The notes beneath the pieces were generated by a model, which saw nothing but the letters and a program-made list of their open reading frames with translations, was not told the origin of the DNA and made no database searches. From the IMG/VR virus record IMGVR_UViG_3300045988_183796: 64,000 nt of DNA. One strand, 5' to 3'. Source of the stretch: a virus. The translations under genes and the position numbers were made by a program. Of this stretch, positions 10,787-61,245 are shown one piece after another (within the stretch, counting starts at the first letter, position 1; the number at the start of each line of letters is the position of its first letter).

Positions 10787-11017
10787 CAGAATGGTTGATG
10801 GAGCTACTTCAACCTCTCGTCTGGCAGGCTGGCAACACTTTAACCGCTAATCGTGAACTTTCATTTAACAAACCGGCTTCCAAATTGAGAAAAAGTGCAA
10901 TTTATGGTATAATGCAGATATAGAAAAGAAAAATTGTACATACCTCTGACCACAAATCATTCAGATGCAATCTAATCAAAGTTTGAGGTTATCTAAATCA
11001 AATCGGAAGCATGTCCT

Positions 11018-11686
11018 ATGAAAAGAAAGTTTTTAATTTCATACGCTGCAGCAACACTGGCAATGGCAGCCGCAATCTGCACTGCCAGAATACCTTCCGT
11101 TGCTTTAGCAAGGACCTATGAGGGCTATAATGGAATGAAGCGTAGCTCGACGGCAGAAGAGACATTCCAGGAAATCAAAGTTCCTGCCTTTGCCTCCATC
11201 AAAGAAGTGACGGCGGAGGAAGCACGAAGTGTAGCTGATGGCATTATCGTTTTTGCATTTCCTACCTGCCCTTATTGCCGGAACCTGATGCCGGAACTTA
11301 TCGAGACCGCAAAAGAGGAGGGAAAGACCCTCTACTATTGCCAAATTGATAACTACCGCGACAAGTATGAATTTGATGAGACTCTGAATGGCCCGGTCAT
11401 GACCGTGGCTCCCGGAAAAGGGTATTATGAGCTTCTTGACTGGCTGAGCGATTATCTCATCGACTATACTGTGAAAGACGAGAACGGCGAAAGCATCAGT
11501 ATCGGTGAAAAGAGAATCGGAGCGCCCACCATAATTACAGTCCAGAACGGGGTTCCTGTATCCTCCTGGAAGCTGAGCATGGTAGAGAATGCCGAGTTCC
11601 CTGACAATGCGTATACTCGTTGGAGCCAGGAAACGCAGGAAATCGTATCGGAGTCACTGCATCAATATTTTGCTGAGGAGGCATAA
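11018..11686 (+). CDS. Secreted thioredoxin-like thiol-disulfide oxidoreductase
   Basis: Signal peptide MKRKFLISYAAATLAMAAAICTA. CxxC active-site motif FPTCPYCRNL. Regulon promoter at about 10885-10913. Confidence 0.7.
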   Translation: MKRKFLISYAAATLAMAAAICTARIPSVALARTYEGYNGMKRSSTAEETFQEIKVPAFASIKEVTAEEARSVADGIIVFAFPTCPYCRNLMPELIETAKEEGKTLYYCQIDNYRDKYEFDETLNGPVMTVAPGKGYYELLDWLSDYLIDYTVKDENGESISIGEKRIGAPTIITVQNGVPVSSWKLSMVENAEFPDNAYTRWSQETQEIVSESLHQYFAEEA

Positions 11687-11689
11687 ATC

Positions 11690-11914
11690 ATGTCGAATAT
11701 CACTGTTGGTCGAATCTTGCTTCTGGACCTTGTGTTCCTTGTTAATTCTGCTTTAACTCTTGTTGTTTTCAAGTTCGTTGGTCTTTTGGATGTTATGACT
11801 ACACCGGCCTTGTTCTTTCATTTTGTTGGTTCTTATATTATCCTGGCATATTTCATGTTTTGGATTTATCCGCAGATTCTGGAAGACCGGGAAAACAACG
11901 ACGACGATAAATAA
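11690..11914 (+). CDS. Small two-TM membrane protein
   Basis: Two hydrophobic helices and an acidic C-terminus. Starts 4 nt after the upstream stop. Confidence 0.45.
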   Translation: MSNITVGRILLLDLVFLVNSALTLVVFKFVGLLDVMTTPALFFHFVGSYIILAYFMFWIYPQILEDRENNDDDK

Positions 11915-12043
11915 CCTGGTCGGAACCGTAGGTGCTTGAAACCGTAGGTACTTGCCTAAAGTTGAGCGAAATGTACTTGCGGGAAGCGTAGCCGCAATAG
12001 ACTACTCCGAAAGTACCGTAGGCCCGCATACCGTAGGTCATAC
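11915..12043. repeat. Cluster of CGTAG-core direct repeats (ACCGTAGGTRC x4 and GAAGCGTAGCCGC)
   Basis: aaccgtaggtgcttg, aaccgtaggtacttg, gtaccgtaggcccg, ataccgtaggtcat and gaagcgtagccgc are read directly from the sequence. Related clusters lie at 13890-13990 and 57960-58030. Confidence 0.6.
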
Positions 12044-12411
12044 AGTCAACAACCCCGCCCAAACCGGTTCACCGGTTATAGACGGGGCTTGCGGGGCAAC
12101 CCGTAAGCCCGGTTGATTAGCCTTGGTGAACGGCAACTTCGGTTGCTGCGAACTCCGTTATGCATTTGATGAGCAATCATCTTCATAATATAGGCACCCC
12201 GATATGCTCCACAAGTGTCGGGCTCTGCGGGCAGTGTATGTATCAATGGCGCAAGCCGTTGATATGTATTACGTTAAAAATCTCTAAGGGTAGGAGATGT
12301 GCGGCTGCCATGCCGAAAGGCTGAAACAGTGCATAACATTGGCGAAGTGGACCACAGGGCGCAAGCCCTGACTTATAGTTTCATTACTATTTAACGAAAG
12401 GAGTATCTTGC
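12044..12411 (+). ncRNA. IscB-associated omega-RNA (HEARO-like) scaffold, copy 1
   Basis: About 365 nt of stop-rich non-coding sequence ending exactly at the iscB ATG. Contains GNRA-capped stems (cagggc-gcaa-gccctg; gcttgcgggg-caa-cccgtaagc; accggttcaccggt). Its 5' and 3' blocks are shared with a second copy at 30880-31198, and the two copies show compensatory base changes. Confidence 0.6.
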
Positions 12412-13605
12412 ATGAGCACTTGCGTTTGTGTTCTCAGCAACAGTGGTGAACGCTTAATGCCTACCTTCCGTCTTGGCAAGGTACGCCGACTCTTGAAAGA
12501 CGGAAAAGCAAAAATCGTTAAGCACCATCCATTTACTATCCAGTTACTGTATGACAGTAAAACAAACACGCAGCCCATCGAAATCTGCGAGGATGTGGGC
12601 TACAACTACATCGGCATCAGTGTAAAAAGTCAATCTCACGAGTATGTATCTGCGCAGTATGATACATTACAGGATGAGAAAGCCTGCCACGACAGTTGTC
12701 GTAAGTTGCGCCGAACCCGCAGAAATAGACTGCGCTACCGTAAACCGCGCTTCGATAACCGCAAGCGCGGCGAAGGTTGGCTTGCTCCTTCTTTGAAGCA
12801 TAAGAAAGAACTCAATGTCAACGTTGTCAAGATGTATTGTGCAGTAATGCCCATTACTCATGCAACGGTTGAGGTTGGTTCTTTTGATACGATGCTTGTA
12901 AAAGCAATTCAGGAGGGAAAAGCCATTCCTGAGGGAGCAGACTACCAGAAAGGTCCCCGCTACAACTTGGCAACTTTGCGTGAGGCAGTGTTCTACCGTG
13001 ATAATTACACCTGCCAAGTTTGTGGACGCAAAATCGCGGATGGTGCCATTTTACATATGCACCACATGTTCTACTGGAAAGGAAGACACGGCTACCAGCT
13101 TGATGAGTTGGTTACAGCGTGTGAAAAATGCCACACGCCAGCAAATCATCAAAAAGGCGGCAAGCTCTTCGGTTTTGGCGAAGATAAAGAATTTGCCAAT
13201 CTTTCAGGTGCAGCGTTTATGAACGCTGTTTGCTGGCAGATAGTAGATGCACTGCACGCCACATACGGTAAGGAATTTGTGACCATCACTTATGGTGCGA
13301 TGACAAAGGAAAAGCGAATCATTCTTGGCATAGAGAAAACCCACAACAACGATGCGTATGCAATGGGAGATTATCATCCGGTACATCGTTGCGTGTTTAG
13401 GCATTACCAAAAACGACGCAGAAACAATCGTGTGCTGGAAAAATTCTACGATGCCACTTATATCGACACCCGCACCGGTAACAAAGCAAAAGGTAAAGAA
13501 CTATTTAACGGCAGAATTAGCCGTAATCACAAAAAGAATTCTGAAGACCTGCACAAGTACCGCAGCAAAAAGGTATCGAAGGGCCGTCGCTCTATAAGAA
13601 GGTAG
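12412..13605 (+). CDS. iscB: IscB (IS200/605 OMEGA RNA-guided HNH/RuvC nuclease)
   Basis: N-terminal PLMP-type motif (SGERLMPTFRLGKVRRLLKDGKAKIVKHHPFTIQL). RuvC-I EDVGYNYIGISV. Arg-rich bridge helix RKLRRTRRNRLRYRKPRFDNR. RuvC-II ATVEVGSFD. HNH YTCQVCGRK...HMHH...ACEKCH. RuvC-III THNNDAYAM. No TnpA nearby. Confidence 0.8.
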   Translation: MSTCVCVLSNSGERLMPTFRLGKVRRLLKDGKAKIVKHHPFTIQLLYDSKTNTQPIEICEDVGYNYIGISVKSQSHEYVSAQYDTLQDEKACHDSCRKLRRTRRNRLRYRKPRFDNRKRGEGWLAPSLKHKKELNVNVVKMYCAVMPITHATVEVGSFDTMLVKAIQEGKAIPEGADYQKGPRYNLATLREAVFYRDNYTCQVCGRKIADGAILHMHHMFYWKGRHGYQLDELVTACEKCHTPANHQKGGKLFGFGEDKEFANLSGAAFMNAVCWQIVDALHATYGKEFVTITYGAMTKEKRIILGIEKTHNNDAYAMGDYHPVHRCVFRHYQKRRRNNRVLEKFYDATYIDTRTGNKAKGKELFNGRISRNHKKNSEDLHKYRSKKVSKGRRSIRR

Positions 13606-13889
13606 CGCTATGCAATTCAGCCATACGACACTGTGCGTCTCGAAGGTAAAACATACATTACAAGCGGGTGCCATAATAAAGGCACAAGACTTTTGATTCC
13701 TGCTAATGGGAAAAACAAGTCCGTAGCAATTTCCAAAGTTCAAGTTGTTTGCCATGCGGGAGCATGGATACAAATCATCTAAATATTGAAAGGAGGTAAG
13801 CAGGAAATGCTGTATCTTAGTCTTTTCTAAGAAACGCATTCCTCCCCACCTAAGCCTTACGGCTATAGATGGGGTGTCCTGCTCCATTA

Positions 13890-13990
13890 TCATGAAGCGT
13901 AGCTGCTTGTAAAGAAATGAAAGACGGATGACGGAAGCGTAGCCGCTGCCCGGTAACAGGCTGCCGGTTGCGTAGCTGCCATTCGTCTTT
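13890..13990. repeat. Three GCGTAGC(T/C)GC repeats with about 34-nt spacing
   Basis: gaagcgtagctgc, gaagcgtagccgc and ttgcgtagctgcc are read directly from the sequence. They lie downstream of iscB and upstream of gene 14014. Confidence 0.55.
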
Positions 13991-19994: not shown

Positions 19995-21032
19995 TCAGGC
20001 GACAGATGGGGTATCCGTTGCTGCGTCAAAGAGCAGTGTGCCTTCGCCGTTATAGCTTGCGTCGTTCAGAGCGGCGTAGATGTAGTCAATGAAATAGCCA
20101 TCATCACCATTGTAGGTGGACTTCATGGAGACAAGATTGCCGTTGTCATCATAGGTGTTCTCGAAGGTCTGTTCGAAGTTGCCCATCGTAGCATCTTTGC
20201 CCTGCTGTTTGGTCATATTACCATGCTCATCGTATTCGGTCGAGACCTCACTGCCCTGACCAAAATAATAAGTGGTCTTGTTGTCGCTCACGCGCTTGTG
20301 ATACACAATGTCATCTGCACCATCTTCGCTGACAGTCTCGATATACAGACTATCGACGTCCATCGTATCAAAGTCACGAGTCGTGGTCTGAACGCCACTG
20401 TCATTCGTGATAACCTCCGTAACAGGCAGCTCGTGGGTGTCATCATAGGTGTAGGCGGTGGAGTAGTTCAGATACTGCTCACCATCACTTACGGTGTAGG
20501 ACTCTTCGCTCAGTTTCCGGCCGTTGTCATCATAGGTATACTGGCACACGATGGAAGGATTGCCATCCTCATCATCGCGTTCAATCAGGTCCCCGTGGTC
20601 GTTAAAAACCTGAGTGTACAGATAGTTTTGCTCGCCATTGAGGTAGGAGGTCATTTTCAGGACATTGCCGTTCTCGTCCAGCTCTTTGATGGTAACGGGG
20701 TCCATATCACTTGCTTTGTCGATTTCACGCATGAAAACCTCATTGCCGTTCTCATCGTACTTATGGACGGTAACAACGCCATCTTCATCATCAGCGCTGT
20801 AGTGCATCGTTTCGGTGCTCAACAGCAGGTCCTCTGCAGCAGCTTCGTCTACATCAGTGACCTCGGAAGGCACTTCCTCCGGCGTAGTCTCCTCAACCAC
20901 AGAACTTTCAGCCGGGGCGGTAGAAGCTGCTTCGGACGAGGAAGCGGCAGGCTTCTGGGTAGCACATCCGGCAAGCATCAGGGCTGTGGCGGTTGCCATG
21001 GCAGCGGCAGCGGTCAAGTTTTTGTTTCTCAT
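19995..21032 (-). CDS. YD-repeat lipoprotein
   Basis: Lipobox LMLAGCAT after a signal peptide. Repeated YDENGN/YTYDDNGR/TYDDNGNL YD-type repeats. ATG at 21032 with RBS GAAGGAGAACG. Confidence 0.65.
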   Translation of the reverse strand: MRNKNLTAAAAMATATALMLAGCATQKPAASSSEAASTAPAESSVVEETTPEEVPSEVTDVDEAAAEDLLLSTETMHYSADDEDGVVTVHKYDENGNEVFMREIDKASDMDPVTIKELDENGNVLKMTSYLNGEQNYLYTQVFNDHGDLIERDDEDGNPSIVCQYTYDDNGRKLSEESYTVSDGEQYLNYSTAYTYDDTHELPVTEVITNDSGVQTTTRDFDTMDVDSLYIETVSEDGADDIVYHKRVSDNKTTYYFGQGSEVSTEYDEHGNMTKQQGKDATMGNFEQTFENTYDDNGNLVSMKSTYNGDDGYFIDYIYAALNDASYNGEGTLLFDAATDTPSVA

Positions 21033-21359
21033 GTTCTTTCGTTCTCCTTCGTTTGGATAGTTTTTGCACAAATACTTCAATGTAGTATTTGTTGTACATC
21101 TCCTATTGTATCTGGCTCGCATATCCCGGCAAGCAAACAAGCATTACAAATTGGTAACCATTCGTGCAGCTACTGAAAAAATCGCGAAATTTCTTCGATG
21201 ACTTCCGGTTGTAGTGTATTTGATTGGACTTCCAAATTCTATTTTATCCGCACATATTGCAACTTACGGTTGTATTTGCTATACTATTAACAACCAATTA
21301 CAACCAGCAGAACATAAATAACAACCAACAGGTGTTGCAGCGGACGGAGGAGGCCAATC

Positions 21360-30879: not shown

Positions 30880-31198
30880 AGTCAACAACCCCGCCTAAAC
30901 CGGTTCGCCGGTTATAGACGGGGCTTGCGGGGCAACCTGTAAGCCCAGTTGATTAGCCTAAGCCCATTGCTCCGGCAGTGGGGAAAACTACGTTGTGTAC
31001 TAATAATATAGGCACCTTATCCATGCTCCACAAGTGGTGAGCTCTGCAGGCGTTTCGTTAAACATCTCCGAGGGGAGGAGAAGTGCGAGCGTCATGTCGA
31101 AAGGCTAAAACAGTGCATAACATTGGCGAAGTGGACCACAGGACGCAAGTCCTGACTTATAGTTTTATTACTATTTTACGAATGGAGAAACAAAAATT
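30880..31198 (+). ncRNA. Omega-RNA/HEARO-like scaffold copy 2 (no iscB), abutting the flotillin start codon
   Basis: Shares the 5' ~75-nt and 3' ~95-nt blocks with copy 1. The middle is divergent. Shows compensatory base changes (caggac-gcaa-gtcctg versus cagggc-gcaa-gccctg). Confidence 0.5.
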
Positions 31199-32842
31199 AT
31201 GGTATATGTGATTGGAATTGTAGCAGCCCTGATTATTCTCTTTGGATTTCTCTGCTACAAGAAAGCTCCGCCCACGGAGGCTATCGTTGTAACTGGCTTT
31301 GGCCTGTCTAAGCCTAAAGTGGTTTGCGGAAAGGGTACATTTGTTCTGCCCGTTCTTCAACGGGCTGACCGACTGAATATGCGCCTTTTGAAAATCGATG
31401 TCAAGACTCCTGAAACAGGTGTTAAGACGAAGAACGGCGTAAGTCTCTGGATTGACTCTGTTGTCACGATTCAAGTCTACAGCGAAAACTCTACCGTTCT
31501 GGATGAAGAAGTGAAGGCATCCGGTCTGAAAGACGCCAAGGCGTACATCATGTCCCGCCAGCAGGCAGCCATCTCGAACTTTCTCGGCATGAACGAGCAG
31601 GGCATCAATGAGAAAGTTAATGACGTTCTGCAGGGCAATTTGCGTGAGATTGTCTCTGACATGACCGTTGACCAAATTCTGACGAACCGCAAGCAGATGG
31701 CTGTGAGCGTTATCGAGAATGCTCGCCCCGACCTTGCTAAGATGGGACTTGAGGTCGTGACTTTTAATGTCCAGGACATCAGGGATGCAGTGGATGTTCA
31801 AGGCCACAATCACGGCGTTATCGAAGCTATCGGCATCGAACAGGAAGAGCTCGTAAAGAAACAGGCTGAAATTGCCCGTGCTCAGGCTGCCCGTGATGTA
31901 GCCTGCGCGAAGGCCGATGCTGAGATGGCTGCAAATGCCAAAGAAGTTGAAGCGCAGACTGCGATTGCAAAACGCAACAATGAATTGCAGCTCGCCAAGG
32001 CAAAGCTGAAAGCTGAAGCTGATAAAGCTGCGGCTGACGCAGATGCTGCCGGTCAGATTCAGATGAATCTCCGCGCCAAAGAAATCAAAGAAGCGGAAGC
32101 GGATGCTGAAATTGCCAAGCAGAAGAAAATGGTAGACCTTGCCGCACAGGAAGCCGAGGTCCAACAACGCAAACTGGATGCGGAAGTCCGCAAACAGGCA
32201 GATGCTGACCTGTACCGCCGCCAGAAAGAGGCAGAAGCCAAGAAATATGAGGCGGAACGTGCAGCTGAGGCACAGAAGTTCTCCAAGCAGCAGGAAGCAG
32301 AAGGCATCGAGCTTGTCGGTAAGGCAGAAGCTGAAGCGATTCGTCAGAAAGGCTTGGCTGAAGCGGAAGCTATGAAACAGAAAGCAGAGGCATATAAGCA
32401 GTATAACGATGCGGCTGTGGCTGAAATGCTCATCAAGGTTCTTCCGGACATTGCCAAGAGCGTGGCTCAGCCTTTGTCCAGCATTGATAAGGTTTCTATC
32501 ATTGGCGGTGATGCCTCCGGCGTATCCGGCGTTTCCGGGAACGTTCCTATCCTGATGGCTCAAACCATGCAGACGGTGAAAGAAGCGACCGGCATTGACA
32601 TGGGCGAAATTGTCCGTGCCAACAGCATCCAGGCAAAGACAGACCGCAACATCAACATTATGACTCAATGTGAACAGCCTGAGAATAACAAAGAGAAAGG
32701 AGGTGCCAAGGCAATGGAACGCGTAGAAGGCGGCTATCTGATTCATGAGAAGAGTCTCAACGGTGAGGAAGTCACTCATTTTCGACCGGATGTGACCGAA
32801 GAAGAGAAGGCTATCATGAAAGACAAAAAAGCCAAAGATTAA
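31199..32842 (+). CDS. Flotillin-like SPFH/Band-7 protein
   Basis: N-terminal TM helix, then an SPFH domain (VVTGFGLSKPKVVCGKGTFVLPVLQRADRLNMR...) and a long EA/K-rich coiled-coil. The antisense 581-aa ORF was rejected. Confidence 0.8.
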   Translation: MVYVIGIVAALIILFGFLCYKKAPPTEAIVVTGFGLSKPKVVCGKGTFVLPVLQRADRLNMRLLKIDVKTPETGVKTKNGVSLWIDSVVTIQVYSENSTVLDEEVKASGLKDAKAYIMSRQQAAISNFLGMNEQGINEKVNDVLQGNLREIVSDMTVDQILTNRKQMAVSVIENARPDLAKMGLEVVTFNVQDIRDAVDVQGHNHGVIEAIGIEQEELVKKQAEIARAQAARDVACAKADAEMAANAKEVEAQTAIAKRNNELQLAKAKLKAEADKAAADADAAGQIQMNLRAKEIKEAEADAEIAKQKKMVDLAAQEAEVQQRKLDAEVRKQADADLYRRQKEAEAKKYEAERAAEAQKFSKQQEAEGIELVGKAEAEAIRQKGLAEAEAMKQKAEAYKQYNDAAVAEMLIKVLPDIAKSVAQPLSSIDKVSIIGGDASGVSGVSGNVPILMAQTMQTVKEATGIDMGEIVRANSIQAKTDRNINIMTQCEQPENNKEKGGAKAMERVEGGYLIHEKSLNGEEVTHFRPDVTEEEKAIMKDKKAKD

Positions 32843-36055: not shown

Positions 36056-36060
36056 TTGAC

Positions 36061-36613: not shown

Positions 36614-36789
36614 TATACACAAAATCCAGTGTGACGGTGAATTGCTACGGCAATATTATGACGGCATCGGACGGCAAGACCTACAACCTCTGCGGCAGGA
36701 TGTTGACCTGCAGCGGCAAGGTCATTAGCTACAACTGTCAGTCGAAAGACGAAGCACTGGGTACGGTCGTGGGACTGTACGGCGGTTGA
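36607..36789 (+). CDS. Small protein, family B paralog 2
   Basis: ATG overlaps the upstream stop. RBS AAAAGGTGGTG. Ends in ...VGLYGG. Confidence 0.5.
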   Translation: MVVYTKSSVTVNCYGNIMTASDGKTYNLCGRMLTCSGKVISYNCQSKDEALGTVVGLYGG

Positions 36790-36808
36790 AGGTTCTAGGA
36801 GGTACAAT

Positions 36809-37018
36809 ATGCAAACGGTCACGACAAACAACGGTGTAGAACTGCATGTTAAGGGCAGCATCATTTACACAACCGATGCCAAGGCGTTTTGGCGCAGCGG
36901 GAATATGCTGGTCGGAAACGGTACGGTCATCAGCTACCAGTGCCGGTCGATGGATGAGGCGGTCGATATGGTCGCCGCCTTGTACAATGGCAGAAAAATA
37001 GAAGCAGCGCAAGCATAA
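36809..37018 (+). CDS. Small protein, family B paralog 3
   Basis: RBS AGGAGGTACAAT. Contains ...VISYQCRSMDEAVDMVAALYNG. Confidence 0.5.
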   Translation: MQTVTTNNGVELHVKGSIIYTTDAKAFWRSGNMLVGNGTVISYQCRSMDEAVDMVAALYNGRKIEAAQA

Positions 37019-39870: not shown

Positions 39871-40359
39871 ATGAAAGACTACGGCAACGGCTATTCCATT
39901 GAGGAGCTTGCCGCAAAATACAGGTTGAGCGTCCGTACATGCTATCGAGCGTTAGACGACGCGAAACAGGAGGCCAGAATTCAGCTGGCACAGGTTGAGG
40001 ATGCCAGAAAAGCTGAAATCCTTGCGGCATACAAGAACAGTGTCCCTCTCAAGGAAATGATTGCGAAATTCAACGTGACAGAAGGATATTGCGGCATGGT
40101 TGCCAACGATGCGGGCCTGACTGAAAACCGCAGAAACGAGCGCATCAAAATTAGACAAAGACCGCGCAACGAGAATATCTTTCGAGAATACGAGAGTGGC
40201 GTGCCGGTGCAGAAACTATCCGAAAAGTATCAGCTCTCGGTTCCTGGTATTTACAAGGTTATCCAGCGAGTGAGAAGGCAAAAGGAGGCGATGGAGTTTT
40301 GCAATGGATTGTTAAGCAAACCAAATCGAAAGGATATGAGTTCACCTTCGATATCGTGA
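39871..40359 (+). CDS. HTH-domain protein (repeated resolvase/sigma-region-4-like HTH units)
   Basis: Repeated motifs YSIEELAAKYRLSVRTCYRAL, PLKEMIAKFNVTEGYC and VQKLSEKYQLSVPGIYKVI. The start is uncertain; a non-ATG start further upstream near RBS AAAGGAG is possible. Confidence 0.45.
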   Translation: MKDYGNGYSIEELAAKYRLSVRTCYRALDDAKQEARIQLAQVEDARKAEILAAYKNSVPLKEMIAKFNVTEGYCGMVANDAGLTENRRNERIKIRQRPRNENIFREYESGVPVQKLSEKYQLSVPGIYKVIQRVRRQKEAMEFCNGLLSKPNRKDMSSPSIS

Positions 40360-40937
40360 AAGGCAAGGCCGTTATCGGGCAGGCACACTATATTCCGAAA
40401 GTGCTGCGGCAAGGTTATGGCATCCGGCTGAATGATTCCAAGTTCCTGCTGCAATACATGCCAGCTGGTGACGCAAGGGCGTACATGCGCGGCATCAACA
40501 CGAAAGATATTCTGAGACACCCTTTTGCTATCTGTGAGAACAACCGCACGGTAGGCGAGATTTCCGTCATCCATACAAAAACCGGATTCCTCCAAGGATA
40601 CAATTCTATCACCATGCAGCTGTATGGCGAGGAATACCAGAGCTACAAAATTGGTTTTGGAAAAGAAGGAGTATGCTGCCCTGTATTCCTTTGCGGACAG
40701 CAAATCGCCCAAATCAATAAGAGCGCGGTGGTCAAGGATAATCTGGATGAATACCTGATTTACGCAGTGAATGAAAAGGCACTGATGCCGTCCGTCGTGT
40801 TCGCCATTTATATCGATGGGATATACTACGCAAACCGCGGCGTGTATACGAATGACGCGACAACTATTAAGTGCGAGTACTGCCTGAATGAGGATGTCCT
40901 GTCTCACTATGACCCGAACTTCATCAAGGGGTTGTAA
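40299..40937 (+). CDS. Hypothetical protein
   Basis: Probable TTG start after AAGGAGG. Overlaps the end of the upstream gene. Confidence 0.45.
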   Translation: MQWIVKQTKSKGYEFTFDIVKGKAVIGQAHYIPKVLRQGYGIRLNDSKFLLQYMPAGDARAYMRGINTKDILRHPFAICENNRTVGEISVIHTKTGFLQGYNSITMQLYGEEYQSYKIGFGKEGVCCPVFLCGQQIAQINKSAVVKDNLDEYLIYAVNEKALMPSVVFAIYIDGIYYANRGVYTNDATTIKCEYCLNEDVLSHYDPNFIKGL

Positions 40938-43339: not shown

Positions 43340-43405
43340 TTATTGACAAACGGCGCAAAAGGTGCTTGGGTTAAAAGCCCTTGCAAAAAGTGCGATATCC
43401 ATATA
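43340..43405 (+). promoter_or_regulatory. sigma70-like promoter (TTGCAA ... TATAAT) preceded by a copy of the 27-bp element
   Basis: ttgcaaaaagtgcgatatccatataataaa, with ATTTTACCAGCACTTTGATATTTTGTGG just upstream. Confidence 0.45.
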
Positions 43406-43437
43406 ATAAATTGAAATTCAAAAGGGAGATACACATT

Positions 43438-44046
43438 ATGAGTGAACAGAAAGAAAATGCTCAGCTCGAAGCTTATCGGAAGCTCGTTGAAGATTTCAAG
43501 CGCTTTGTCAGCTCTGAGATTCGAACGGAGGAAAACAGTTACCGAATTGTGGACATGACTTCCGAAGATGCCGAAATCGATGACCCGAGCGTTCCGGTGA
43601 CTCAACTGGAGGACGAAAAAGCAGAGAAGCTTGCCGGTATTTGCATGGACCTGTCCAATGCCACGCTGTGGCTCTACTACAACCGTGACAAATTTGCAAA
43701 CGTCGAGTTCATGCCCCTGACTGATGAAACTCTGAAAGAATACCAGAAGCAGGCTCAGAATGCTCTGAATGAACCGAAGAGCCCTCTGTATCTGAAATCC
43801 TGGTATCAGCTCATTGAAATGTTGAGTCAGGAATGTATCCCGCAGCGCTACGAGGACGACGGTCAGCGATATACAGACGTCTATGTGAACACCTATATGC
43901 TCATGTACCTGACCATGACCCGACTCAAGAACGGCGGAACCTTTACACGCCTTGCAAACGGGCAGGGAAGCGATGCTGTGAAAATCACGACCATCGCAAT
44001 GTACTACTTCTCCAGCCTTTTGACGGTTCTCTGCACTGAATATTAA
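43438..44046 (+). CDS. Hypothetical protein
   Basis: RBS AAAAGGGAGATACACATT. Confidence 0.55.
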   Translation: MSEQKENAQLEAYRKLVEDFKRFVSSEIRTEENSYRIVDMTSEDAEIDDPSVPVTQLEDEKAEKLAGICMDLSNATLWLYYNRDKFANVEFMPLTDETLKEYQKQAQNALNEPKSPLYLKSWYQLIEMLSQECIPQRYEDDGQRYTDVYVNTYMLMYLTMTRLKNGGTFTRLANGQGSDAVKITTIAMYYFSSLLTVLCTEY

Positions 44047-48265: not shown

Positions 48266-50152
48266 TCACTGAACAACTTCGCCAAGGTCATTTGCGTATT
48301 TCGGGTCACACATCATGAAATAGTTGACGGGGCCGTACTCCAGACCGAGCTCCTGCGCGTATGCCTTGATGACTTCCAGAACGTCCTCTTTCTTGAGATT
48401 ATACTTGGAATGCAGACGGGCAAACTCTTTGTCAGAGACAGAAACGCAAGAGCAATTTTCTGCATCGGTTTCTTTGCTGCCCAGCATCCCGTCAAAGATG
48501 TCCTGCCCTGCACAGAGAATCGTCTCATTGTTCATCGCATAGGCGATAACGGAAGCCTTACAGTCAAAGTCGCTGTTTTCCACAAGGAAATCCTCAGGGC
48601 GGCCGTGACGTTCAACAACGTTTTCATAGATGTCCCGGAGTTCGATAGGAGCAGAAGGAGCGGTCAGAGCTGCTTTATGAAGGCGCATGAATTCCACAAA
48701 CTTTTCATTCGAGAGGGTATCGGTATAAAAGCCGATGCCGGAAACGCGAACCTTCACTTCGCTGGCAAAGTAATCGTCAATTTTGGAGACGATTTTCTGC
48801 TGAACCCGCTTGTACGCTTCCTGAACATTGGAAGCCGTGTAAAATACCGGGAACTTCATGATGTCGATTCCCTCCGGCAGACTCGCGTCATAGGCCGCAT
48901 CAATGCCGCCTCGCAGCGCCGGAACCGCGTCATGAAGCTCTTTCACAGAAGAAATGTATCCGGTAATGTACAGCTCATCGTTTTTGCTGTAATGCCCGAT
49001 AAGTCCCACATAGAGGGTCTGCATCAGCATCCGCTTGAAGCTGAACCAACATAGACGAATGGGTAGAATGACATTAGCAGCCGTACCTTCCGCACGATAG
49101 GTGCCGGGGGCAGAGACCTTTTCCAGCAGAATCTGGTCGTTCTTGTCACCGTATTTTTCCTTGAAAAGAGCTTGAAGAATTTCAGTGGACGAAAGAGGAG
49201 TGGACATTGGAATCGTTTCATTCAGAAAAGAGAGGAATGCATCCACATTGTCTTTCTGCCATGCGTCATTAGACATGCTTGCACGCTGCATAGAGAGCTT
49301 GTCTTTCCTATCATCGGGCAGGGGCTCATACCCACAGGCGATACGAAGTTCGTTCTCCGTGACAGCATCCGTTGCACTTGCAATTTTTTTGATGGTGTTC
49401 TCGGTCGGCTGAGCTTTTGCGTTGCCATTCACGAGGCTGCTGATATACCCACGAGTCAGCCCCGCTTGAAACGCAAACTTACCCTGTGTGCGGGTTCCGA
49501 TGGCTTTTTTGACCAGCGATGCCAGCCTTTGAAAGTCGGGCTCTTTGGGAAAGGTGGCCTCCGCATCCTTATTGCTGTTCTTTTCAAGTACCGACTTGTC
49601 CCAACCGGTGACAAGAGAATACCCAATATCCTTCAAGGATTGATAGGCAACCCCGTTCTGGTCAAGAGCCGGGGAGTATGTACCGCTGTTATCTTCCAGC
49701 TGCTCTACTGCCTCACGCACCATCCTTGCTTCGTTCATCAGGATGACGTCCGGGGCTTCAAGCCGGGCAAGACTCTTGTACCGATTATTGAGGCGCTCGA
49801 CTCGTGCGGCCAATGCAGTGATGTTGGCAACTTGGTCTTCCGTTGCATGGGCAGAGATATCTGCACCAAGTTCAAAATGGTTTAGTGCAGGAATATCCAC
49901 GCCTTTGCTCTTGGCGAATTCCACAATGGCTTCCGCGCCATAGAAACGCTTCTCATGGGCTGCGACAACTTTCGTTATCGTGTCGGCCGAGTTGTCCAGC
50001 TCAAGCACTTCACCTTTTCCGGCATCCTCGACATAACACCTGGTGTTGGTGAGAAAGCCTTTCAAAAAATCAGCATCCACATCCAGCTTCTTAGCGATGC
50101 CGGGCAGCTGCTTATAGAAAATCACGCGCGTGGCGAGGTTAACAGAAATCAT
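48266..50152 (-). CDS. Large hypothetical protein with an internal XRE-like HTH
   Basis: GLTRGYISSLVNG resembles a Cro/C1 HTH. 628 aa. Confidence 0.5.
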   Translation of the reverse strand: MISVNLATRVIFYKQLPGIAKKLDVDADFLKGFLTNTRCYVEDAGKGEVLELDNSADTITKVVAAHEKRFYGAEAIVEFAKSKGVDIPALNHFELGADISAHATEDQVANITALAARVERLNNRYKSLARLEAPDVILMNEARMVREAVEQLEDNSGTYSPALDQNGVAYQSLKDIGYSLVTGWDKSVLEKNSNKDAEATFPKEPDFQRLASLVKKAIGTRTQGKFAFQAGLTRGYISSLVNGNAKAQPTENTIKKIASATDAVTENELRIACGYEPLPDDRKDKLSMQRASMSNDAWQKDNVDAFLSFLNETIPMSTPLSSTEILQALFKEKYGDKNDQILLEKVSAPGTYRAEGTAANVILPIRLCWFSFKRMLMQTLYVGLIGHYSKNDELYITGYISSVKELHDAVPALRGGIDAAYDASLPEGIDIMKFPVFYTASNVQEAYKRVQQKIVSKIDDYFASEVKVRVSGIGFYTDTLSNEKFVEFMRLHKAALTAPSAPIELRDIYENVVERHGRPEDFLVENSDFDCKASVIAYAMNNETILCAGQDIFDGMLGSKETDAENCSCVSVSDKEFARLHSKYNLKKEDVLEVIKAYAQELGLEYGPVNYFMMCDPKYANDLGEVVQ

Positions 50153-50389
50153 GGTGTACTCCTTTCAAATATGTCATTAGCTGTACAATGCTGTCATCTT
50201 CTGTAATTATAATAGCACATCCCGCACCAAAAAGCAAGCATGAATTTACAAAAAATGACAAGAAAATACACAAGATGACATATTTGGGCAAAGCAGTTGA
50301 TTTCCGAGTCTTTGCTACCCCGTGATGGAACATGCCCTGTGCGTCTTGTCTATGCCACAGTTTTGCCACGATTTTGCCATGATTTTGCC

Positions 50390-54706: not shown

Positions 54707-55027
54707 ATGTATACTTGCACCTTAAAATTCGAAGCTACCGCGTTCCGCGAGGATGATGACAACGAGCTCGAAAGCATCTCTGCTTCCATCAGCGTCCCCG
54801 TAAAAGGTGATGATGAAACGGTTGAAGAAACGCTGAGTAATGAGAAGCTGATTGTCCGCACTGTTGTAGCGTTGTACGAAATCGTTAGCTACCTGCGCCC
54901 CAACTGGCTGGACAACGAGGCTACCAGCCTGACGCTGGATATTTCCATCGATGGCAGTGAAGTTCAGTCGCGTGGCGGCCTTGTTACCATGAAACCGGAA
55001 GGCTTTATCTTTAACCTGGATGATTAA
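54707..55027 (+). CDS. Acidic small protein, family A paralog 2
   Basis: RBS AAAGGGGAATACCAAC. About 40% identity to 56697-57017. Confidence 0.55.
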   Translation: MYTCTLKFEATAFREDDDNELESISASISVPVKGDDETVEETLSNEKLIVRTVVALYEIVSYLRPNWLDNEATSLTLDISIDGSEVQSRGGLVTMKPEGFIFNLDD

Positions 55028-56696: not shown

Positions 56697-57017
56697 ATGA
56701 ACACCAGTATCTTGAAACTTGAAGCCAGCGTGATTCGCCCCAAAGATTTTGACGAACTCGACGGTCTTGCTGCTTCCATCAGCTTCCCCGTCGAATACGA
56801 TGATGAGGCAATCGGTGAGGCTCTGGCCGACCAGGACCTGATGGCCTATGTCGTCGGTGAGCTGCATGACCTCGTTGTCCGTATGCGCCCCGAATGGCAG
56901 GATAACGAAGATACCAGCCTGACTATCAAGGCATTCCTGGACGAAGCCGAGTGCCAGACGCTCAAGGGCCTTGTCGCAATGAAAGAGGACAGCTACACCT
57001 TCGTCATTGAGGGCTAA
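56697..57017 (+). CDS. Acidic small protein, family A paralog 3
   Basis: RBS AAAAGGAGATATTCCCA. Aligns with 54707-55027. Confidence 0.55.
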   Translation: MNTSILKLEASVIRPKDFDELDGLAASISFPVEYDDEAIGEALADQDLMAYVVGELHDLVVRMRPEWQDNEDTSLTIKAFLDEAECQTLKGLVAMKEDSYTFVIEG

Positions 57018-57350
57018 TAGCTAAAAGAACAAGTGAAAACCCTGCTCGCAGTAAAATGCGGGCGGGGTCTTTTTTTGTTTGACAAGGTGTGCGAGATGGC
57101 TATGATGATTATTGTATCAAAGATACCACTTACCTTCATTTTTAACATTCCGCTTTTGCAAGGACAGCCTCATTCCGAGGTTGTCCTTTTTCTTTTGCGT
57201 AACTCTCCACGGAAACACTTGTCCCCGTGTTTAACATAAATCCGCAAGCTGCTCTAAATTTTGGAACAGCTTAGTCAATTCAAATCGTACGAAAGTACGA
57301 AAACACTACGCAAACATTCTGCGTAGACTGTAAAAAAAGGAGTAATAATT

Positions 57351-58064: not shown

Positions 58065-58142
58065 CAGATTTGTACGAGAGATACTATTCACACAATAGGA
58101 TTCACACGAAGCTGCTCGGGAGCCGTATGGCTGCTGGGTGGC

Positions 58143-58170
58143 TTTTTCTTTTGTGCGAGTTGCGTACAAT
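58143..58170 (+). promoter_or_regulatory. Regulon promoter (weak -35) for the lipoprotein / macro / MazG operon
   Basis: ttttGTGCGAGTtgcg-TACAAT. Confidence 0.45.
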
Positions 58171-59640: not shown

Positions 59641-59653
59641 GAGGAGGCACACA

Positions 59654-60073
59654 GTGAATCAAGATGAAGCGTTGCTGATTCGGAAACTGATTTTCGCAAA
59701 AAACAGCCAAGACATTACGCACTTTTCTCGCCTCATGGACGAAATTGCACAAGCATTTGAACAGCAAGGTGATAGAGAAAGCGCTCGTGCTATTCTTCAG
59801 ACTCTTCATAACGGTTACGTCCAGTCGTACTTTGAACTAGGTAGGCAGGTACAACCAGAAGGATGCCCGTATGTAACCTACGAGCCTGCATATACAATCG
59901 AATACAGAGATATGGCGCTACGAATGGCACGGGAATCCACGCGACCCATGCGTGTGCGACATATTTTAGAGTATGTAGAGTGCGGCAATGTTGTAGCCAA
60001 AGATGTTCTGGAATATGACAGAAACACGGAAAAGTGGGTTCGGATTGAAAATGAATGTGTCGCGTTGACATAA
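59654..60073 (+). CDS. Hypothetical protein
   Basis: GTG start after GAGGAGGCACACA. Confidence 0.5.
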   Translation: MNQDEALLIRKLIFAKNSQDITHFSRLMDEIAQAFEQQGDRESARAILQTLHNGYVQSYFELGRQVQPEGCPYVTYEPAYTIEYRDMALRMARESTRPMRVRHILEYVECGNVVAKDVLEYDRNTEKWVRIENECVALT

Positions 60074-60093
60074 AATAGCAAGGAAGTGATATA

Positions 60094-61101
60094 GTGACCA
60101 ATGTAGAATTGAAAGCAATTTTCCAACGCGAAGAATACGATTTTTTACGTACCAACAAACATCTGGGAGATAACATCCTGTTTTTGACCGTCGGCGGCAG
60201 CCATGCTTACGGAACCAACGTTGAAGGCTCTGACATCGATATCCGTGGCGTGGCAGGCTCGCCTGAAATTTTGGGATTCAATCATTTTGAGCAGGCAATC
60301 GATAACCAAACGGATACCGTCATCTACGCGGTCAACAAATTCGTCAGTTTGCTTGTGCAGGGCAACCCCAACATTATCGAACTTCTTGGCAATGACCCGG
60401 AGTTGTACGTTAATATGACACCGGAAGGCCAAATGCTGCTTGACAATCGGACACTGTTCTTGACGCGGCGTATTGCCTACAGCTACGGCGGCTTTGCAAA
60501 CGACCAGCTCAGACGCCTGCAGATGGGCCTTCTTCGGAATGGGACCTCGCCGGAAGCATTTAAGAACAAATTTGAGAAGAGGAGCCTGGAACGGTCGATT
60601 GCCGGTTGGGGTAAGGATGACATTTTTGAAATCTCCATCAGCGAAGATGCGGATGAAGAAGGCAAACATCCGCTCCTGATTTCCGGCAATTTGAACGATT
60701 ATCCGGTCATCTCTCTCAAGTCCCTGCTAAAGAGTCTGACTACGACCATCGACCAGTATGAGCAGCCGCAGCATCCGAAAGCACAAAAAGATGCTGCCCA
60801 CATCAACAAACACGCGATGCACATTGTGCGGTTGTACTACACGGCGTTCGATATTCTGGAAAAAGGCGAGATTATCACTCACCGAGACAAGGAACGCGAG
60901 GAATTGTTGGCGATTCGCAACGGCAAGTACCTGCGTGAAGACGGGTCGTACGCACCCGAATTCTTTGAGTTTGTTGATGCGCTTGAAAAGAGATTTCAGG
61001 ATGACGTGAGGAAAACCTCTCTTCCTGCTAAGCCTGACTTTGGAAAAATTGAGGAGCTTCTGGTGGAAATCAACAAGTCATATTTGCGGCGTATCGTGTA
61101 A
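60094..61101 (+). CDS. Nucleotidyltransferase-domain protein (pol-beta superfamily)
   Basis: LFLTVGGSHAYGTNVEGSDIDIRGV matches the GS...D.D nucleotidyltransferase motif. Confidence 0.6.
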   Translation: MTNVELKAIFQREEYDFLRTNKHLGDNILFLTVGGSHAYGTNVEGSDIDIRGVAGSPEILGFNHFEQAIDNQTDTVIYAVNKFVSLLVQGNPNIIELLGNDPELYVNMTPEGQMLLDNRTLFLTRRIAYSYGGFANDQLRRLQMGLLRNGTSPEAFKNKFEKRSLERSIAGWGKDDIFEISISEDADEEGKHPLLISGNLNDYPVISLKSLLKSLTTTIDQYEQPQHPKAQKDAAHINKHAMHIVRLYYTAFDILEKGEIITHRDKEREELLAIRNGKYLREDGSYAPEFFEFVDALEKRFQDDVRKTSLPAKPDFGKIEELLVEINKSYLRRIV

Positions 61102-61217
61102 AGCGGAACACCAACGACAACAACCATCAAGGCTGTACAAGACTATGCGCTCATTCGCAAGTTGCGGGTGGGCGTTCTTTTTTGCCCAAAAAACAAAAAT
61201 AAACATAGTAAAAAGCC

Positions 61218-61245
61218 TTGCACATCTGTGCGAATCAGATATAAT
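61218..61245 (+). promoter_or_regulatory. Regulon promoter
   Basis: TTGCAC-atctGTGCGAATcaga-TATAAT. Confidence 0.55.

Follow-up and report, generated by a model that had tools for sequence, protein, structure and literature searches.

Nearly all accessory, defence and anti-defence units of a large, uncultured conjugative element of human-gut Clostridia start from one rigid promoter type with an invariant TGCGA core in the spacer. An element-owned transcription programme, run via one DNA-binding factor, is therefore probable. The stretch of DNA analyzed here (64,000 nucleotides, termed the window) is part of this T4SS-bearing element, which is larger than 200 kb and was seen in human-gut metagenomes only.

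Architecture and Distribution of the Promoter Family

The promoters have the skeleton TTG-N8-TGCGA-N7-A-N-AAT in common. It is enriched above chance in the window, with 12 exact matches (0.02 expected) and 17 matches when up to one mismatch is allowed (0.6 expected). The true register is TTG-N7-GTGCGAAT-N4-TAnAAT, corresponding to a spacer of 16 bp throughout the family copies, and GTGCGAAT itself was found 11 times in the window, on the plus strand only (2.9 expected). The initial annotation had described such a family, and 14 of the 15 sites which it listed fit the one skeleton, with leave-one-out PWM scores of 19–38 bits; its written pattern has a wrong spacing and gives zero matches. The remaining site at 10885 scores −1 bit and is an ordinary-looking promoter instead of a member, because it reads GTGCAATT, shifted by one base. 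Three members were absent from that list, 23668 and 57079 on the plus strand and 21105 on the minus strand. All family promoters of the window are in gene orientation, and every site is intergenic according to our own gene calls (Table 1).

As proposed before, the sites look like sigma-A/sigma-70-type promoters, judged by their invariant TTG, the 16-bp spacer, TAnAAT and a pyrimidine/purine start, and we infer that transcription starts at them. A non-redundant set of 59 copies was compiled from the window and its relatives. A purine lies 8 nt after the −10 in 59/59 copies and is preceded by a pyrimidine in 55/59. TGCGA stands at the same register in 58/59 copies, and TTGC-N6-KTGC is present in 38/59. 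The promoters thereby carry an additional invariant core, which host RNA polymerase is not known to read.

In the relatives (832 kb), 294 motif matches are located on the gene strand and one on the opposite strand, and the motif is kept ahead of non-homologous genes. One relative carries the motif over more than 200 kb and not merely in a leading region; the initially suggested role in early or entry expression is conjectural. Across 185,579 species genomes, 28 exact skeleton matches were found in 26 stretches, with 12 matches in one MAG; the remaining ones are singletons, and about 35 are expected by chance. Due to this clustering in a single MAG, the motif is regarded as element-specific, and the composite motif was not found as a host-genome feature in these 185,579 genomes. 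The invariant core and its restriction to the element family naturally suggest one dedicated factor and a co-regulation of the units, as initially assumed.

Table 1. Promoters, terminators and further features of the window.
Feature	Position	Strand	Details
Non-member	10885..10913	+	TTGAGA-17-TATAAT; without TGCGA
P21105	21105..21132	-	exact skeleton; upstream of minus-strand RHS-repeat gene (~21032-19995)
P23668	23668..23695	+	one mismatch (TCG for TTG); terminated RNA ~62 nt
Leader terminator of P23668	23717..23772	+	dG -24.3 kcal/mol
P30616	30616..30643	+	transcript start GTACAAGAGAAAC; ~128 nt long
Leader terminator of P30616	30739..30785	+	dG -21.1 kcal/mol
P30783	30783..30810	+	HEARO RNA, then flotillin gene (31199-32842)
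HEARO RNA (IscB omega-RNA, RF02033)	30881..31141	+	91 bits (threshold 83); no adjoining IscB gene
P32965	32965..32992	+	heads 267/281-aa ORF and VWA-protein operon
P37169	37169..37196	+	core TGCAA; perfect dyad TGCAA-A-TTGCA; heads PLD/NgoFVII-like gene
P39760	39760..39787	+	top score, 39-40 bits; Mor-like gene 111 nt downstream
Mor-like protein	39871..40359	+	three tandem HTH repeats; start may lie further upstream
P40971	40971..40998	+	perfect dyad TGCGA-A-TCGCA; operon of 198-aa ORF, AcrVA2-like gene, 235-aa ORF
P44105	44105..44132	+	followed by leader terminator, 65-aa ORF, second terminator, ResIII helicase, 180-aa ORF, NADAR gene
Leader terminator of P44105	44162..44200	+	dG -17.5 kcal/mol; ends +54 from start
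Second terminator after P44105	44427-44465
XRE-628	48266..50152	-	RNA-polymerase-clamp-like N-terminal domain, XRE HTH, C-terminal part; divergent from P50390
P50390	50390..50417	+	-10 TATGAT; divergent XRE-628 gene opposite; two tandem terminators, then EcoRI-type methylase operon incl. GmrSD/HNH gene
Two tandem leader terminators of P50390	50428..50525	+	dG -22.4 and -24.7 kcal/mol
P54631	54631..54658	+	heads 106-aa ORF, paralogue of 56697-57017
P56106	56106..56133	+	core ATGCGA
P56483	56483..56510	+	hexamers TTGACA, TACAAT; heads 106-aa paralogue at 56697
P57079	57079..57106	+	weaker: 17 bits, one mismatch; terminator 57150-57196, then 99-aa ORF
P58037	58037..58064	+	transcript start GTACGAGAGATAC; leader 75 nt
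Terminator of P58037 leader	58107-58153		overlaps -35 of P58143
P58143	58143..58170	+	T-tract TTTTTC replaces -35; heads lipoprotein-like 135-aa ORF and macro-like ORF
P61218	61218..61245	+	52-nt leader with terminator (61265-61311); UvrD-like helicase ORF from 61324, running off window end

Transcript Starts and Leader Terminators

About half of the family promoters show a conserved transcript start (RTAMGATARATA) together with an intrinsic terminator ahead of the gene. For 30/59 promoters, a terminator was identified ahead of the ORF and no more than 140 nt from the start, and compensatory changes were found in 8 of 12 terminator pairs. The likeness of the initial transcribed regions, which had been noticed earlier, is real and extends to a 12-nt motif. 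Of the GTAC-type leaders, 11 were folded, and in 10 of these the predicted structure pairs the 5′ end with a downstream (C)GUAC block or a variant of it.

The description of each site as the head of a transcription unit is only roughly right and needs exceptions. P30783 drives a non-coding HEARO/IscB omega-RNA, and P23668, P30616 and P58037 give short terminated RNAs. One or two strong terminators separate P44105, P50390, P57079 and P61218 from the gene that follows. The tandem terminators of P50390 end 19 nt ahead of the methylase start codon. The terminator of the P30616 transcript abuts the next promoter, P30783.

Candidate Regulators

The reader of the TGCGA core is probably the three-HTH Mor-like protein, judged from its gene context and sequence. 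This protein, already named as a candidate in the initial annotation, is the best one in the window: the best promoter copy lies upstream of its gene, and a family promoter is located at the same distance of 111 nt in 40 of 41 close loci. In a subfamily with 40% identity, a family promoter with the same TGCGA precedes a two-gene HTH operon in 26 of 29 loci. The protein has Pfam Mor/HTH matches, and its three HTH repeats are seen in the sequence and in the AF2 model. A Foldseek search with this model gave no significant match (best E 0.4), and the same holds for Mor and C. Some relatives keep the motif although their 20-kb loci showed no Mor-like gene (L007, L008, L012 and L013); it could lie elsewhere in these elements.

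Furthermore, related loci contributed 130 and 87 additional protein clusters to a Pfam census. Among the 25 leading families that its tables list, sigma, NusG and Q-type families were absent, and the only DNA-binding regulators were Mor-like HTH proteins and a chromosomal Spo0A. XRE-628 is outside this census, because it clusters with the window protein. As the analysis covered a part of the element of more than 200 kb, the gene of a sigma factor or of a further regulator could lie in the remainder.

XRE-628, the second candidate proposed before, is probably not the reader of TGCGA, as its recognition helix and the repeats of its own promoter change between subfamilies whereas TGCGA is constant. 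From this co-variation it probably autoregulates via its own repeats. Its N-terminus mimics the RNA-polymerase clamp, being a copy of the surface which docks sigma region 2 (beta′ clamp helices).

Proposed Mechanism and Alternative Explanations

Tentatively, we favour promoters which combine recognition by the host primary sigma factor with a fixed-register site for one element-encoded factor, probably Mor-like, that exerts positive control. The host's primary sigma factor would use the −35 (TTGC/TTGA), the 16-bp spacer and the −10 (TAnAAT), with the start at the purine 8 nt after the −10. The recognition site of the single element-encoded protein would be located at −24 to −14, with the invariant TGCGA at −24 to −20. 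The candidate factor, most likely Mor-like, would contact the TTGC-N6-GTGCGAAT-TGCA surface and aid sigma-A RNA polymerase where the hexamers are weak. The best cores accompany TTGCnn and GAyAAT hexamers, and core strength is lower the closer the hexamers come to the sigma-A consensus (Spearman −0.39 and −0.37; p 0.002 and 0.004), a modest trend among copies that share descent and hence are not independent. About half of the units would have a second gate, consisting of better hexamers, the start RTAMGATARATA, a structured leader and a terminator; because an intrinsic terminator precedes the gene, these units would also need read-through by another factor. If positive control is true, the motif would be the address label of an element-specific transcription programme. 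We infer a protein that reads the core, its identity and the sign of its control.

Activator boxes at a fixed register in many promoters, read by one element-encoded activator, are known for Mu Mor/C, lambda cII (TTGC-N6-TTGC) and AcaCD/SetCD of IncC plasmids and SXT ICEs. These systems keep a sigma-70 −10, as is the case here, and the likeness includes the Pfam similarity to Mor and the TTGC-N6-KTGC copies. However, their boxes lie at or upstream of the −35 and replace it, whereas here TTG is invariant and the core lies downstream; the lambda cII site is about 3 bp further upstream than the TGCGA core. Two points weigh against positive control: repressor sites usually lie between −35 and −10, and we know of no activator class except MerR which works from this spacer. 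A MerR-like activator, as suggested initially, is not supported, because MerR-type promoters need spacers of 19–20 bp and all copies here have one of 16 bp.

A close rival, possible but less probable, is that the core is the operator of an autoregulated element repressor, either the Mor-like protein or one from outside the window. The promoters would give a sigma-A-constitutive burst on entering a repressor-free recipient and would then be throttled. Bound in the spacer, a protein would block access of RNA polymerase. The core forms an imperfect dyad (TGCGA-A-TYGCA, perfect at 37169 and 40971), and the hexamers are acceptable, scoring 8–11 of 12 consensus matches. In addition, a candidate regulator gene behind the best copy would allow negative feedback, the cargo includes anti-defence genes (AcrVA2-like, NADAR, orphan methylases), and a pentamer related to the core, TACGA or TAAGA at +2 to +6, could be a second operator. 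The repressor is modelled on p576 Reg576/EGeRS2, IncN ArdK/CUP, RK2 KorA/KorB and Aca/anti-CRISPR control, and every analogue for which published evidence exists is a repressor (PMC8708921, PMC6289460, PMC13551039).

By analogy, the promoter family belongs with the known plasmid regulons of repeated promoter/operator units. In Bacillus, Reg576 represses the establishment-regulon promoters EGeRS2 of p576 (pLS20 family), likewise a conjugative Firmicutes element, in which several operons are each preceded by a copy of a conserved regulatory sequence with a sigma-A promoter, the operon cargo is variable and mosaic, including anti-restriction genes, and a regulator gene follows one promoter copy (PMC8708921). 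However, p576 has four promoters, compared with 17 in 40 kb here, and in a relative the motif extends across more than 200 kb. The operators of Reg576, TTATCCC dual heptamers, are located not in the spacer but upstream of the −35 and sometimes after the start, whereas here TGCGA keeps one fixed position in the spacer; p576 is without the leader terminators present here. In the IncN CUP/ArdK system (pKM101/R46), repeated promoter/operator units head anti-restriction and maintenance genes and are bound by one autoregulated plasmid protein, ArdK (PMC6289460). ArdK is a proven repressor, and the system differs in its Gram-negative host, an unrelated 13-nt consensus, an unrelated protein and far fewer copies. 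Delver and Belogurov reportedly proposed in 1997 that CUP units are recombination sites for gene acquisition. Aca are HTH or RHH proteins which recognise a promoter-internal repeat; some of them additionally bind a conserved RNA motif that immediately follows the start site, and some control several neighbouring anti-defence operons (PMC13551039). A parallel is the AcrVA2-like gene in the unit adjoining the Mor-like gene. However, Aca are autorepressors encoded downstream of an acr gene and act on one to few promoters, whereas here an element-wide family, a three-HTH protein and terminating leaders are found.

Several observations argue against the repressor. The strongest cores occur with the weakest hexamers, the opposite of what a burst followed by repression needs, and the register is absolutely fixed, whereas known plasmid repressor operators vary in position (PMC8708921). 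With only 6 bp between the half-site centres, an HTH dimer would be hard to accommodate. Over more than 200 kb, the motif is also found ahead of genes for defence, surface and maintenance functions, which should stay on in an established host. Neither a Reg576-like RHH protein nor an ArdK-like protein was seen.

It is unlikely that the core is the loading site of a Q-like antiterminator, comparable to the lambda Q-binding element at PR′. Transcription would start constitutively and pause at a −10-like sequence within the first bases of the transcript, where the DNA-bound factor would modify the polymerase for read-through of leader and between-cassette terminators. As at PR′, the region between −35 and −10 holds a conserved DNA element whose distance to the start is constant, the first transcribed bases include a −10-like sequence, and a nearby terminator leads to a short RNA. 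TAnnnT is present at +2 to +7 in 19/30 promoters with a leader terminator and in 2/29 without (Fisher 6e-6), an association inflated by the shared ancestry of the leader types. Strong terminators, ending at +45 to +130, precede the genes, and the MTase/GmrSD operon can be reached only via two of them. However, the half of the promoters without pause-like element and terminator carry the best cores, and RNA pairing with a downstream CGUAC is a better explanation for the GTACG at the start of the transcript. Lambdoid phages have one Q-type promoter, in contrast to dozens here, half without a terminator, and the sequences scanned yielded no Q-family or NusG-like protein.

It is decidedly unlikely that the whole 36-bp consensus is the promoter of a sigma factor which the element encodes outside the sequences covered, like SigN of plasmid pBS32. 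XRE-628 could then be the matching anti-sigma, owing to its copy of the sigma region 2 docking surface. The motif holds about 27 bits compared with about 10–12 for ordinary sigma-70 promoters, the AAT of the −10 and the TTG of the −35 are conserved above the level of housekeeping promoters, and both the rigid register and the restriction to the element would fit. However, the hexamers and their spacing match the primary sigma factor, and no sigma factor is known to read −24 to −20. Neither the window proteins nor the non-window clusters scanned, of which the census tables list the 25 leading families, included a member of the sigma-70 family.

Very unlikely is the absence of any dedicated factor, in which case copies of one ancestral strong promoter would have spread with the cassettes and been homogenised by recombination, the core being read by host RNA polymerase alone or by nothing. 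Chimeric junctions, with 97 left and 91 right flank clusters in 132 combinations, indicate frequent recombination at the cores, and all copies belong to one mosaic element family. On the other hand, sequences outside the motif are unrelated between copies right to its edges, and the positions beside the nearly invariant TGCGA vary freely; such position-specific conservation points to selection, not recent copying. Host genomes are also without the motif.

Finally, it is extremely improbable that the core serves as a 0A box (TGNCGAA) for host Spo0A~P, which would tie the element's expression to stationary phase or sporulation of the host. The core contains CGAA, and a host Spo0A gene adjoins element DNA in locus L103. 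However, the core's invariant T and G conflict with the 0A box on both strands, TGCGAA is one base short, and a host regulon would put the composite motif in host genomes, where it is absent.

The promoter cores are joints for gene-cassette exchange, as seen from the chimeric junctions. With positive control by a Mor-like factor, the use of the identical 28-bp cores as crossover points for cassette swapping would be a by-product.

Register and Anatomy of the Promoter Family

The octamer GTGCGAAT was found 11 times in the window, with all copies on the plus strand, where 2.9 occurrences are expected. The initial annotation had placed a conserved sequence in the spacers of about 15 promoters. 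Its literal pattern is spaced wrongly and matches nothing in the window; re-reading the register from the 15 printed sites gave TTG-N7-GTGCGAAT-N4-TAnAAT with a spacer of 16 bp. Fourteen of these sites were retained, scoring 19-38 bits in a leave-one-out position matrix, whereas the site at 10885 (-1 bit), with the sequence GTGCAATT, is shifted off register by one base and was excluded from the family.

The enrichment of the motif was confirmed using the skeleton TTG-N8-TGCGA-N7-A-N-AAT, which was built from relatives and not from the window. Exact matches to it occur 12 times in the window compared to 0.02 expected, and 17 matches with at most one mismatch compare to 0.6 expected. Three members, at 23668, 57079 and 21105, were absent from the original list. 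The last one lies on the minus strand ahead of a minus-strand RHS gene, which shows that the orientation of the motif tracks that of the gene. Every copy is intergenic according to our own gene calls.

The anatomy of the motif was tallied on 39 and later on 59 non-redundant copies. The -35 region starts with TTG in 55 of the 59 (TTGC 41, TTGA 11, TTGT 3), and TGCGA, in the following called the core, occupies motif positions 11-15 in 58 of them. The core is followed by A, T/C, T/C, G, C and A/G, resulting in an imperfect dyad TGCGA-A-TYGCA that is perfect at two copies (37169 and 40971). The -10 region has the general form TA[C/G/T]AAT or GAyAAT (TACAAT 18, TAGAAT 18, GATAAT 6, GACAAT 4, TAAAAT 4, TATAAT 3, plus others). 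The discriminator is A-rich, and 7-8 nt past the -10 region lies a pyrimidine-purine step with a purine in 59/59 copies and a preceding pyrimidine in 55/59. The register is constant across copies, the spacer measures 16 bp in all aligned ones, and the information content of about 27 bits far exceeds that of an ordinary sigma-70 promoter. With a TTGACA-like -35, a 16-bp spacer and a TAnnnT-type -10, the copies have the parts of sigma-70/sigma-A promoters, and several of them were also listed by a promoter-consensus scan.

Gene Content and Setting of the Element

The first 30 kb of the window encode a type IV coupling protein, a VirB4-like ATPase and a Y-family polymerase, as well as an IscB transposon and a toxin-antitoxin pair. 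In the motif-rich region from 30 to 61 kb nearly all genes lie on the plus strand. The coordinates of the individual features are listed in the table.

Features in the window. P followed by a number denotes the family promoter beginning at that position; RNAs and terminators are predicted.
Feature	Position	Strand	Description
Antisense ORF	1642-2949		Antisense to a real gene; wrong strand if chosen by length only
Sequence upstream of IscB gene	12043-12403		Related to sequence downstream of P30783
IscB gene	12412-13605		RRXRR + HNH; within 12043-13896
Antisense ORF	19995-21140		Long ORFs on both strands; the real one is on the minus strand
P23668	23668		Terminated RNA of about 62 nt
P30616	30616	+	RNA of 128 nt; terminator adjoins P30783
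Orphan HEARO/IscB omega-RNA	30881-31141	+	Predicted P30783 transcript; no IscB gene alongside
Antisense ORF	31199-32842		Antisense to a real gene; wrong strand if chosen by length only
HDV-like ribozyme	35573-35642	+	Rfam HDV-F-prausnitzii, 60 bits (threshold 44)
Mor-like gene	39871-40359	+	Candidate regulator
Antisense ORF	40299-40937		Antisense to a real gene; wrong strand if chosen by length only
Antisense ORF	43381-44046		Antisense to a real gene; wrong strand if chosen by length only
P44105	44105	+	Terminators at +54 and +319, followed by helicase
XRE-628 gene	48266-50152	-	XRE-like protein
Inverted hexamer pairs	50153-50340		TGTCAT twice upstream, ATGACA twice downstream of the XRE-628 promoter
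11-bp direct repeats	50345-50389		Three copies, consensus ATGATTTTGCC, first two vary; directly upstream of P50390 -35
P50390	50390	+	Two tandem terminators; the second ends 19 nt 5′ of the methylase ATG
106-aa paralogue	54707-55027		Unknown function; own family promoter(s)
106-aa paralogue	56697-57017		Unknown function; own family promoter(s)
P57079	57079		Leader terminator, followed by 99-aa ORF
P58037	58037	+	Terminator overlapping P58143 -35
P61218	61218	+	Terminator, then UvrD-like helicase past the window end
UvrD-like helicase ORF	61324-64000	+	At least 892 aa; exits window end
Flotillin, VWA and PLD/NgoFVII-like genes	30-61 kb
Mor-like HTH protein and AcrVA2-like genes	30-61 kb
ResIII helicase and NADAR genes	30-61 kb
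EcoRI-type methylase and GmrSD/HNH genes	30-61 kb
MazG-like and RlaP-like genes	30-61 kb

A near-identity search with 20 kb against phage and plasmid collections returned no similar record. An index of public assemblies has the identical Mor-like protein in 300 blocks, on contigs of 75-260 kb; one of these contigs, ERZ1744822 NODE_16 (242,713 bp), matches window positions 29871-50359 at 100% identity. All recovered metagenomic loci (79/79) originate from the human gut. This uncultured element belongs to gut Clostridia and exceeds 200 kb. In one related locus (L103, 2966-8713) the Mor-like gene and its neighbors adjoin chromosomal purL, two AstE/AspA-like genes and spo0A, which suggests Spo0A-carrying Clostridia as host; this low-coverage contig of 9.3 kb may mark an integration junction or be a mis-join.

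Among long overlapping antisense ORFs, a codon-usage score was required throughout for the choice of the strand. The UvrD-like helicase ORF at the window end is missing from the ORF listing, and the first gene calls had spurious minus-strand ORFs in its place. Homologues of the 106-aa paralogues recur in five related loci (L008, L011, L012, L013 and L016).

Promoter Cores as Joints between Cassettes

Clustering of the 60 nt on either side of 271 distinct copies yielded 97 left and 91 right types in 132 combinations, with 19 left types joined to more than one right type. In L074 (7889) the upstream flank of P32965 is fused to the downstream side of P39760, and in L050 (1909) the upstream flank of P40971 is fused to the HEARO leader of P30783. 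Between L001 and the window, homology ends at 50408, within P50390. The promoter cores serve as recombination joints of cassettes, as seen across window positions 30616-61245 and loci L001-L120; one upstream flank can precede different downstream units, and one downstream unit can follow different upstream flanks.

The HDV-like ribozyme lies exactly at a cassette boundary, as homology to five relatives (L001-L003 and L005-L006) is interrupted from 35611 to 36894. In L001 the helicase cassette is replaced by a 228-nt element consisting of two ends only, which match 12043-12169 and 13796-13896.

Restriction to the Element Family

In close relatives the promoters are kept, while the cassettes differ. 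Relatives with an XRE-628 homologue at 39-55% identity carry the same core ahead of different genes, among them TPM/LemA genes, DNA methylases and TIR genes. Across 832 kb of metagenomic loci, 294 matches of at least 20 bits lie on the gene strand compared to a single one on the opposite strand.

A strict pattern scan of 185,579 species, with one genome each, gave 28 matches in 26 stretches. A single metagenome-assembled genome, Clostridiales bacterium HRGM_Genome_2451, holds 12 of the 28, and the remainder are singletons, compared to about 35 matches expected by chance. This distribution shows that the motif belongs to the element family and not to host promoters, ruling out a host-wide promoter type. 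Ten of the 12 matches share a strand of a 223,830-bp contig and form blocks across 1-208 kb; in this relative the motif is element-wide and not confined to one region. A literature search with GTGCGAAT returned unrelated primer sequences only.

Terminated Leaders

For 30 of the 59 promoters a strong intrinsic terminator was predicted to end no more than 140 nt after the inferred start, in most cases at +45 to +130, and ahead of the first ORF. The terminated transcripts are predicted to open with the 12-nt motif RTAMGATARATA, which appears as GTACGATAGATA or ATAAGATAAATA. In leaders of the GTAC type, base pairing is predicted between the 5′ GUACG and a CGUAC further downstream; of 11 folded leaders, 10 pair their 5′ end with this block or a variant of it. 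The pairing encloses a hairpin that differs among copies, followed by the invariant AAUUCACAAU and finally by the terminator, which shows compensatory changes in 8 of 12 pairs. No matching family was found in an Rfam search of the leaders.

A -10-like TAnnnT is present at +2 to +7 in 21 of the 59 copies. It occurs in 19 of the 30 copies with a terminator versus 2 of the 29 without (Fisher 6e-6), the copies being related by descent. Reading GTACGAT as a sigma-dependent pause is weakened by the predicted GUACG-CGUAC pairing of the 5′ end.

A Multi-HTH Protein as Candidate Reader

The initial annotation had named two possible readers of the spacer motif, an HTH protein and the XRE-like protein XRE-628. 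The latter was rejected, because its recognition helix covaries with its own repeats while TGCGA stays constant. The HTH protein, here called Mor-like, consists of three tandem HTH repeats. The Pfam Mor family (PF08765) matches it with E = 3.2e-12 and 46.9 bits (cut-off 24.9), at residues 92-139 only. In a Foldseek search its model had no significant match, with Mor (1rr7) and C (9l0x) at E 0.8-0.9, and the three tandem HTH units stand in place of the overall fold and dimer of Mor/C. The Mor/C binding site lies at -30 to -55, whereas the conserved site of the family lies at -24 to -14.

In 40 of 41 close loci, the Mor-like gene follows the best-scoring promoter at a distance of 111 nt. For a subfamily at 40% identity, 26 of 29 loci have the gene downstream of a family promoter, accompanied by a 181-aa paralogue and an AAA ATPase. 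Most genes of the element are likewise located behind such promoters, and the Mor-like protein is a candidate regulator. Some relatives showed no Mor-like gene in their 20-kb loci. The word-indexed search gave only relatives at 70% identity or above, and the 40% subfamily surfaced via tblastn on fetched loci and the metagenome scan. In this subfamily, L041 (2734-4741, minus strand) and contig 17 of HRGM_Genome_2451 carry two copies of the multi-HTH gene (181 aa and 161 aa) with an AAA+ ATPase gene after them, the three genes sharing one family promoter with a leader terminator. The RHH family is absent from the Pfam results of the window and from the 25 leading families listed for related loci.

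Sign of Control

The core score declines as the hexamers approach the consensus (rho -0.39 and -0.37), and the best cores go with TTGCnn and GAyAAT. Promoters gated by a terminator have better hexamers and weaker cores. Each unit would carry one gate, either dependence on a factor or a terminator. Based on the core-hexamer trend, the single gate per unit and the rigid register, positive control of the family promoters is tentatively favored from these sequence patterns.

A close rival is that the core constitutes the operator of a repressor, which is possible but given a lower probability. It is supported by the position of the site within the spacer and by the partial dyad, and every analogue with published evidence is an autorepressor, namely Reg576 (PMC8708921), ArdK acting on CUP (PMC6289460) and Aca (PMC13551039), but the core-hexamer trend leans against repression. 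It seems unlikely that the core is a Q-like loading site. The association of TAnnnT with leader terminators, found among non-independent copies, points in this direction, although RNA pairing offers an alternative reason for the sequence of this region and neither the window nor the families listed for further clusters, which cover part of the element, include a gene for a Q-family antiterminator. Recognition of the motif by an element-encoded sigma factor is improbable. No sigma-70, NusG or Q-type family was seen among the 25 leading families listed by the Pfam census of 130 + 87 clusters and 9 large proteins. Slightly less credit still is given to pure ancestry of the promoter copies.

The host regulator Spo0A was considered following a Spo0A_C match in the census of related loci. 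The Spo0A box is TGNCGAA. It is very improbable that Spo0A reads the core, since TGCGA(A) is one base short of this box on both strands and the gene is chromosomal, beside purL. Promoters of the MerR type are defined by a spacer of 19-20 bp with a centered dyad operator; the MerR-like activator proposed initially was dismissed, because all copies have a 16-bp spacer, despite the partial dyad TGCGA-A-TYGCA. A single-strand promoter of the Frpo type, known from plasmid leading regions, in which a long imperfect hairpin of the transferred strand restores the -35 and -10, was excluded for want of an inverted partner, the GTGCGAAT copies having one orientation and the hexamers an ordinary duplex register.

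Relation to Known Systems

RK2 Kor is a further plasmid example of a repeated promoter/operator unit ahead of many operons. The family shares with p576 EGeRS2, IncN CUP and RK2 Kor a repeated unit ahead of variable operons, with 17 copies in the window, T4SS genes, and copies that are kept in relatives. However, its motif is unrelated in sequence to the Reg576 operators (TTATCCCnnTTATCCC), and it differs from all three systems in motif, fixed spacer position and copy number as well as in the conserved terminating leader, the candidate three-HTH protein and the setting in an element of gut Clostridia larger than 200 kb. The family would work like these regulons and belongs to none of them at the sequence level.

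The element family occurs in many human-gut metagenomes with a changing load of defense and anti-defense genes. As a 28-bp signature heads nearly every unit of its accessory region, it provides a map of the regulon and a handle on the controlling factor. The same signature marks the exchange points of cassettes, so that regulation and shuffling are joined in one sequence. If positive or polymerase-loading control holds true, this logic would be new for conjugative elements of Firmicutes. Motif and leader could be used to predict unknown genes of the element programme.

XRE-628 and Its Clamp-Like Segment

XRE-628 is present in all relatives examined. The hexamer pairs around its promoter are replaced by TGTCTAAA/TTTAGACA and by TGTATC/GATACA in other subfamilies (region of L007, L012, L013 and L015). 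Recognition helix and repeats covary, with ATGACA in the window, TTAGACA at 55% identity and GATACA at about 40%. By sequence this covariation is an immunity-type pattern, and XRE-628 probably regulates itself.

A sequence search of the PDB with XRE-628 gave 73 matches, exclusively to RNA-polymerase beta′ (best E = 3e-6). Residues 110-176 align to E. coli beta′ 264-320, a stretch which we take to be the clamp helices. The top 50 Foldseek matches of the AF2 model (pLDDT 86) are likewise all beta′, over about 230 aligned columns, and the beta′-like segment is conserved across the XRE-628 family. A DNA-binding protein that copies the docking surface of sigma region 2/NusG is unusual, and XRE-628 may belong to the same regulatory circuit.

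It is conceivable, but doubtful, that the element runs a self-contained programme linking a core-docking factor, the terminating leader and the clamp copy of XRE-628. A multi-HTH factor on TGCGA would appropriate the sigma-A RNA polymerase or load in a Q-like manner, and the RTAMGATARATA start together with the structured leader would gate about half of the units via termination. XRE-628 would be the master protein with a copy of the beta′ clamp and clamp helices, titrating sigma region 2 or a NusG-type factor as a core-mimicking anti-sigma/anti-antiterminator and thereby setting the state of the whole regulon.

Finally, the 11-bp direct repeats next to P50390 recur in L010 (82% identity) as three copies and a degenerate fourth, and relatives with other XRE types, e.g., L013, lack them.
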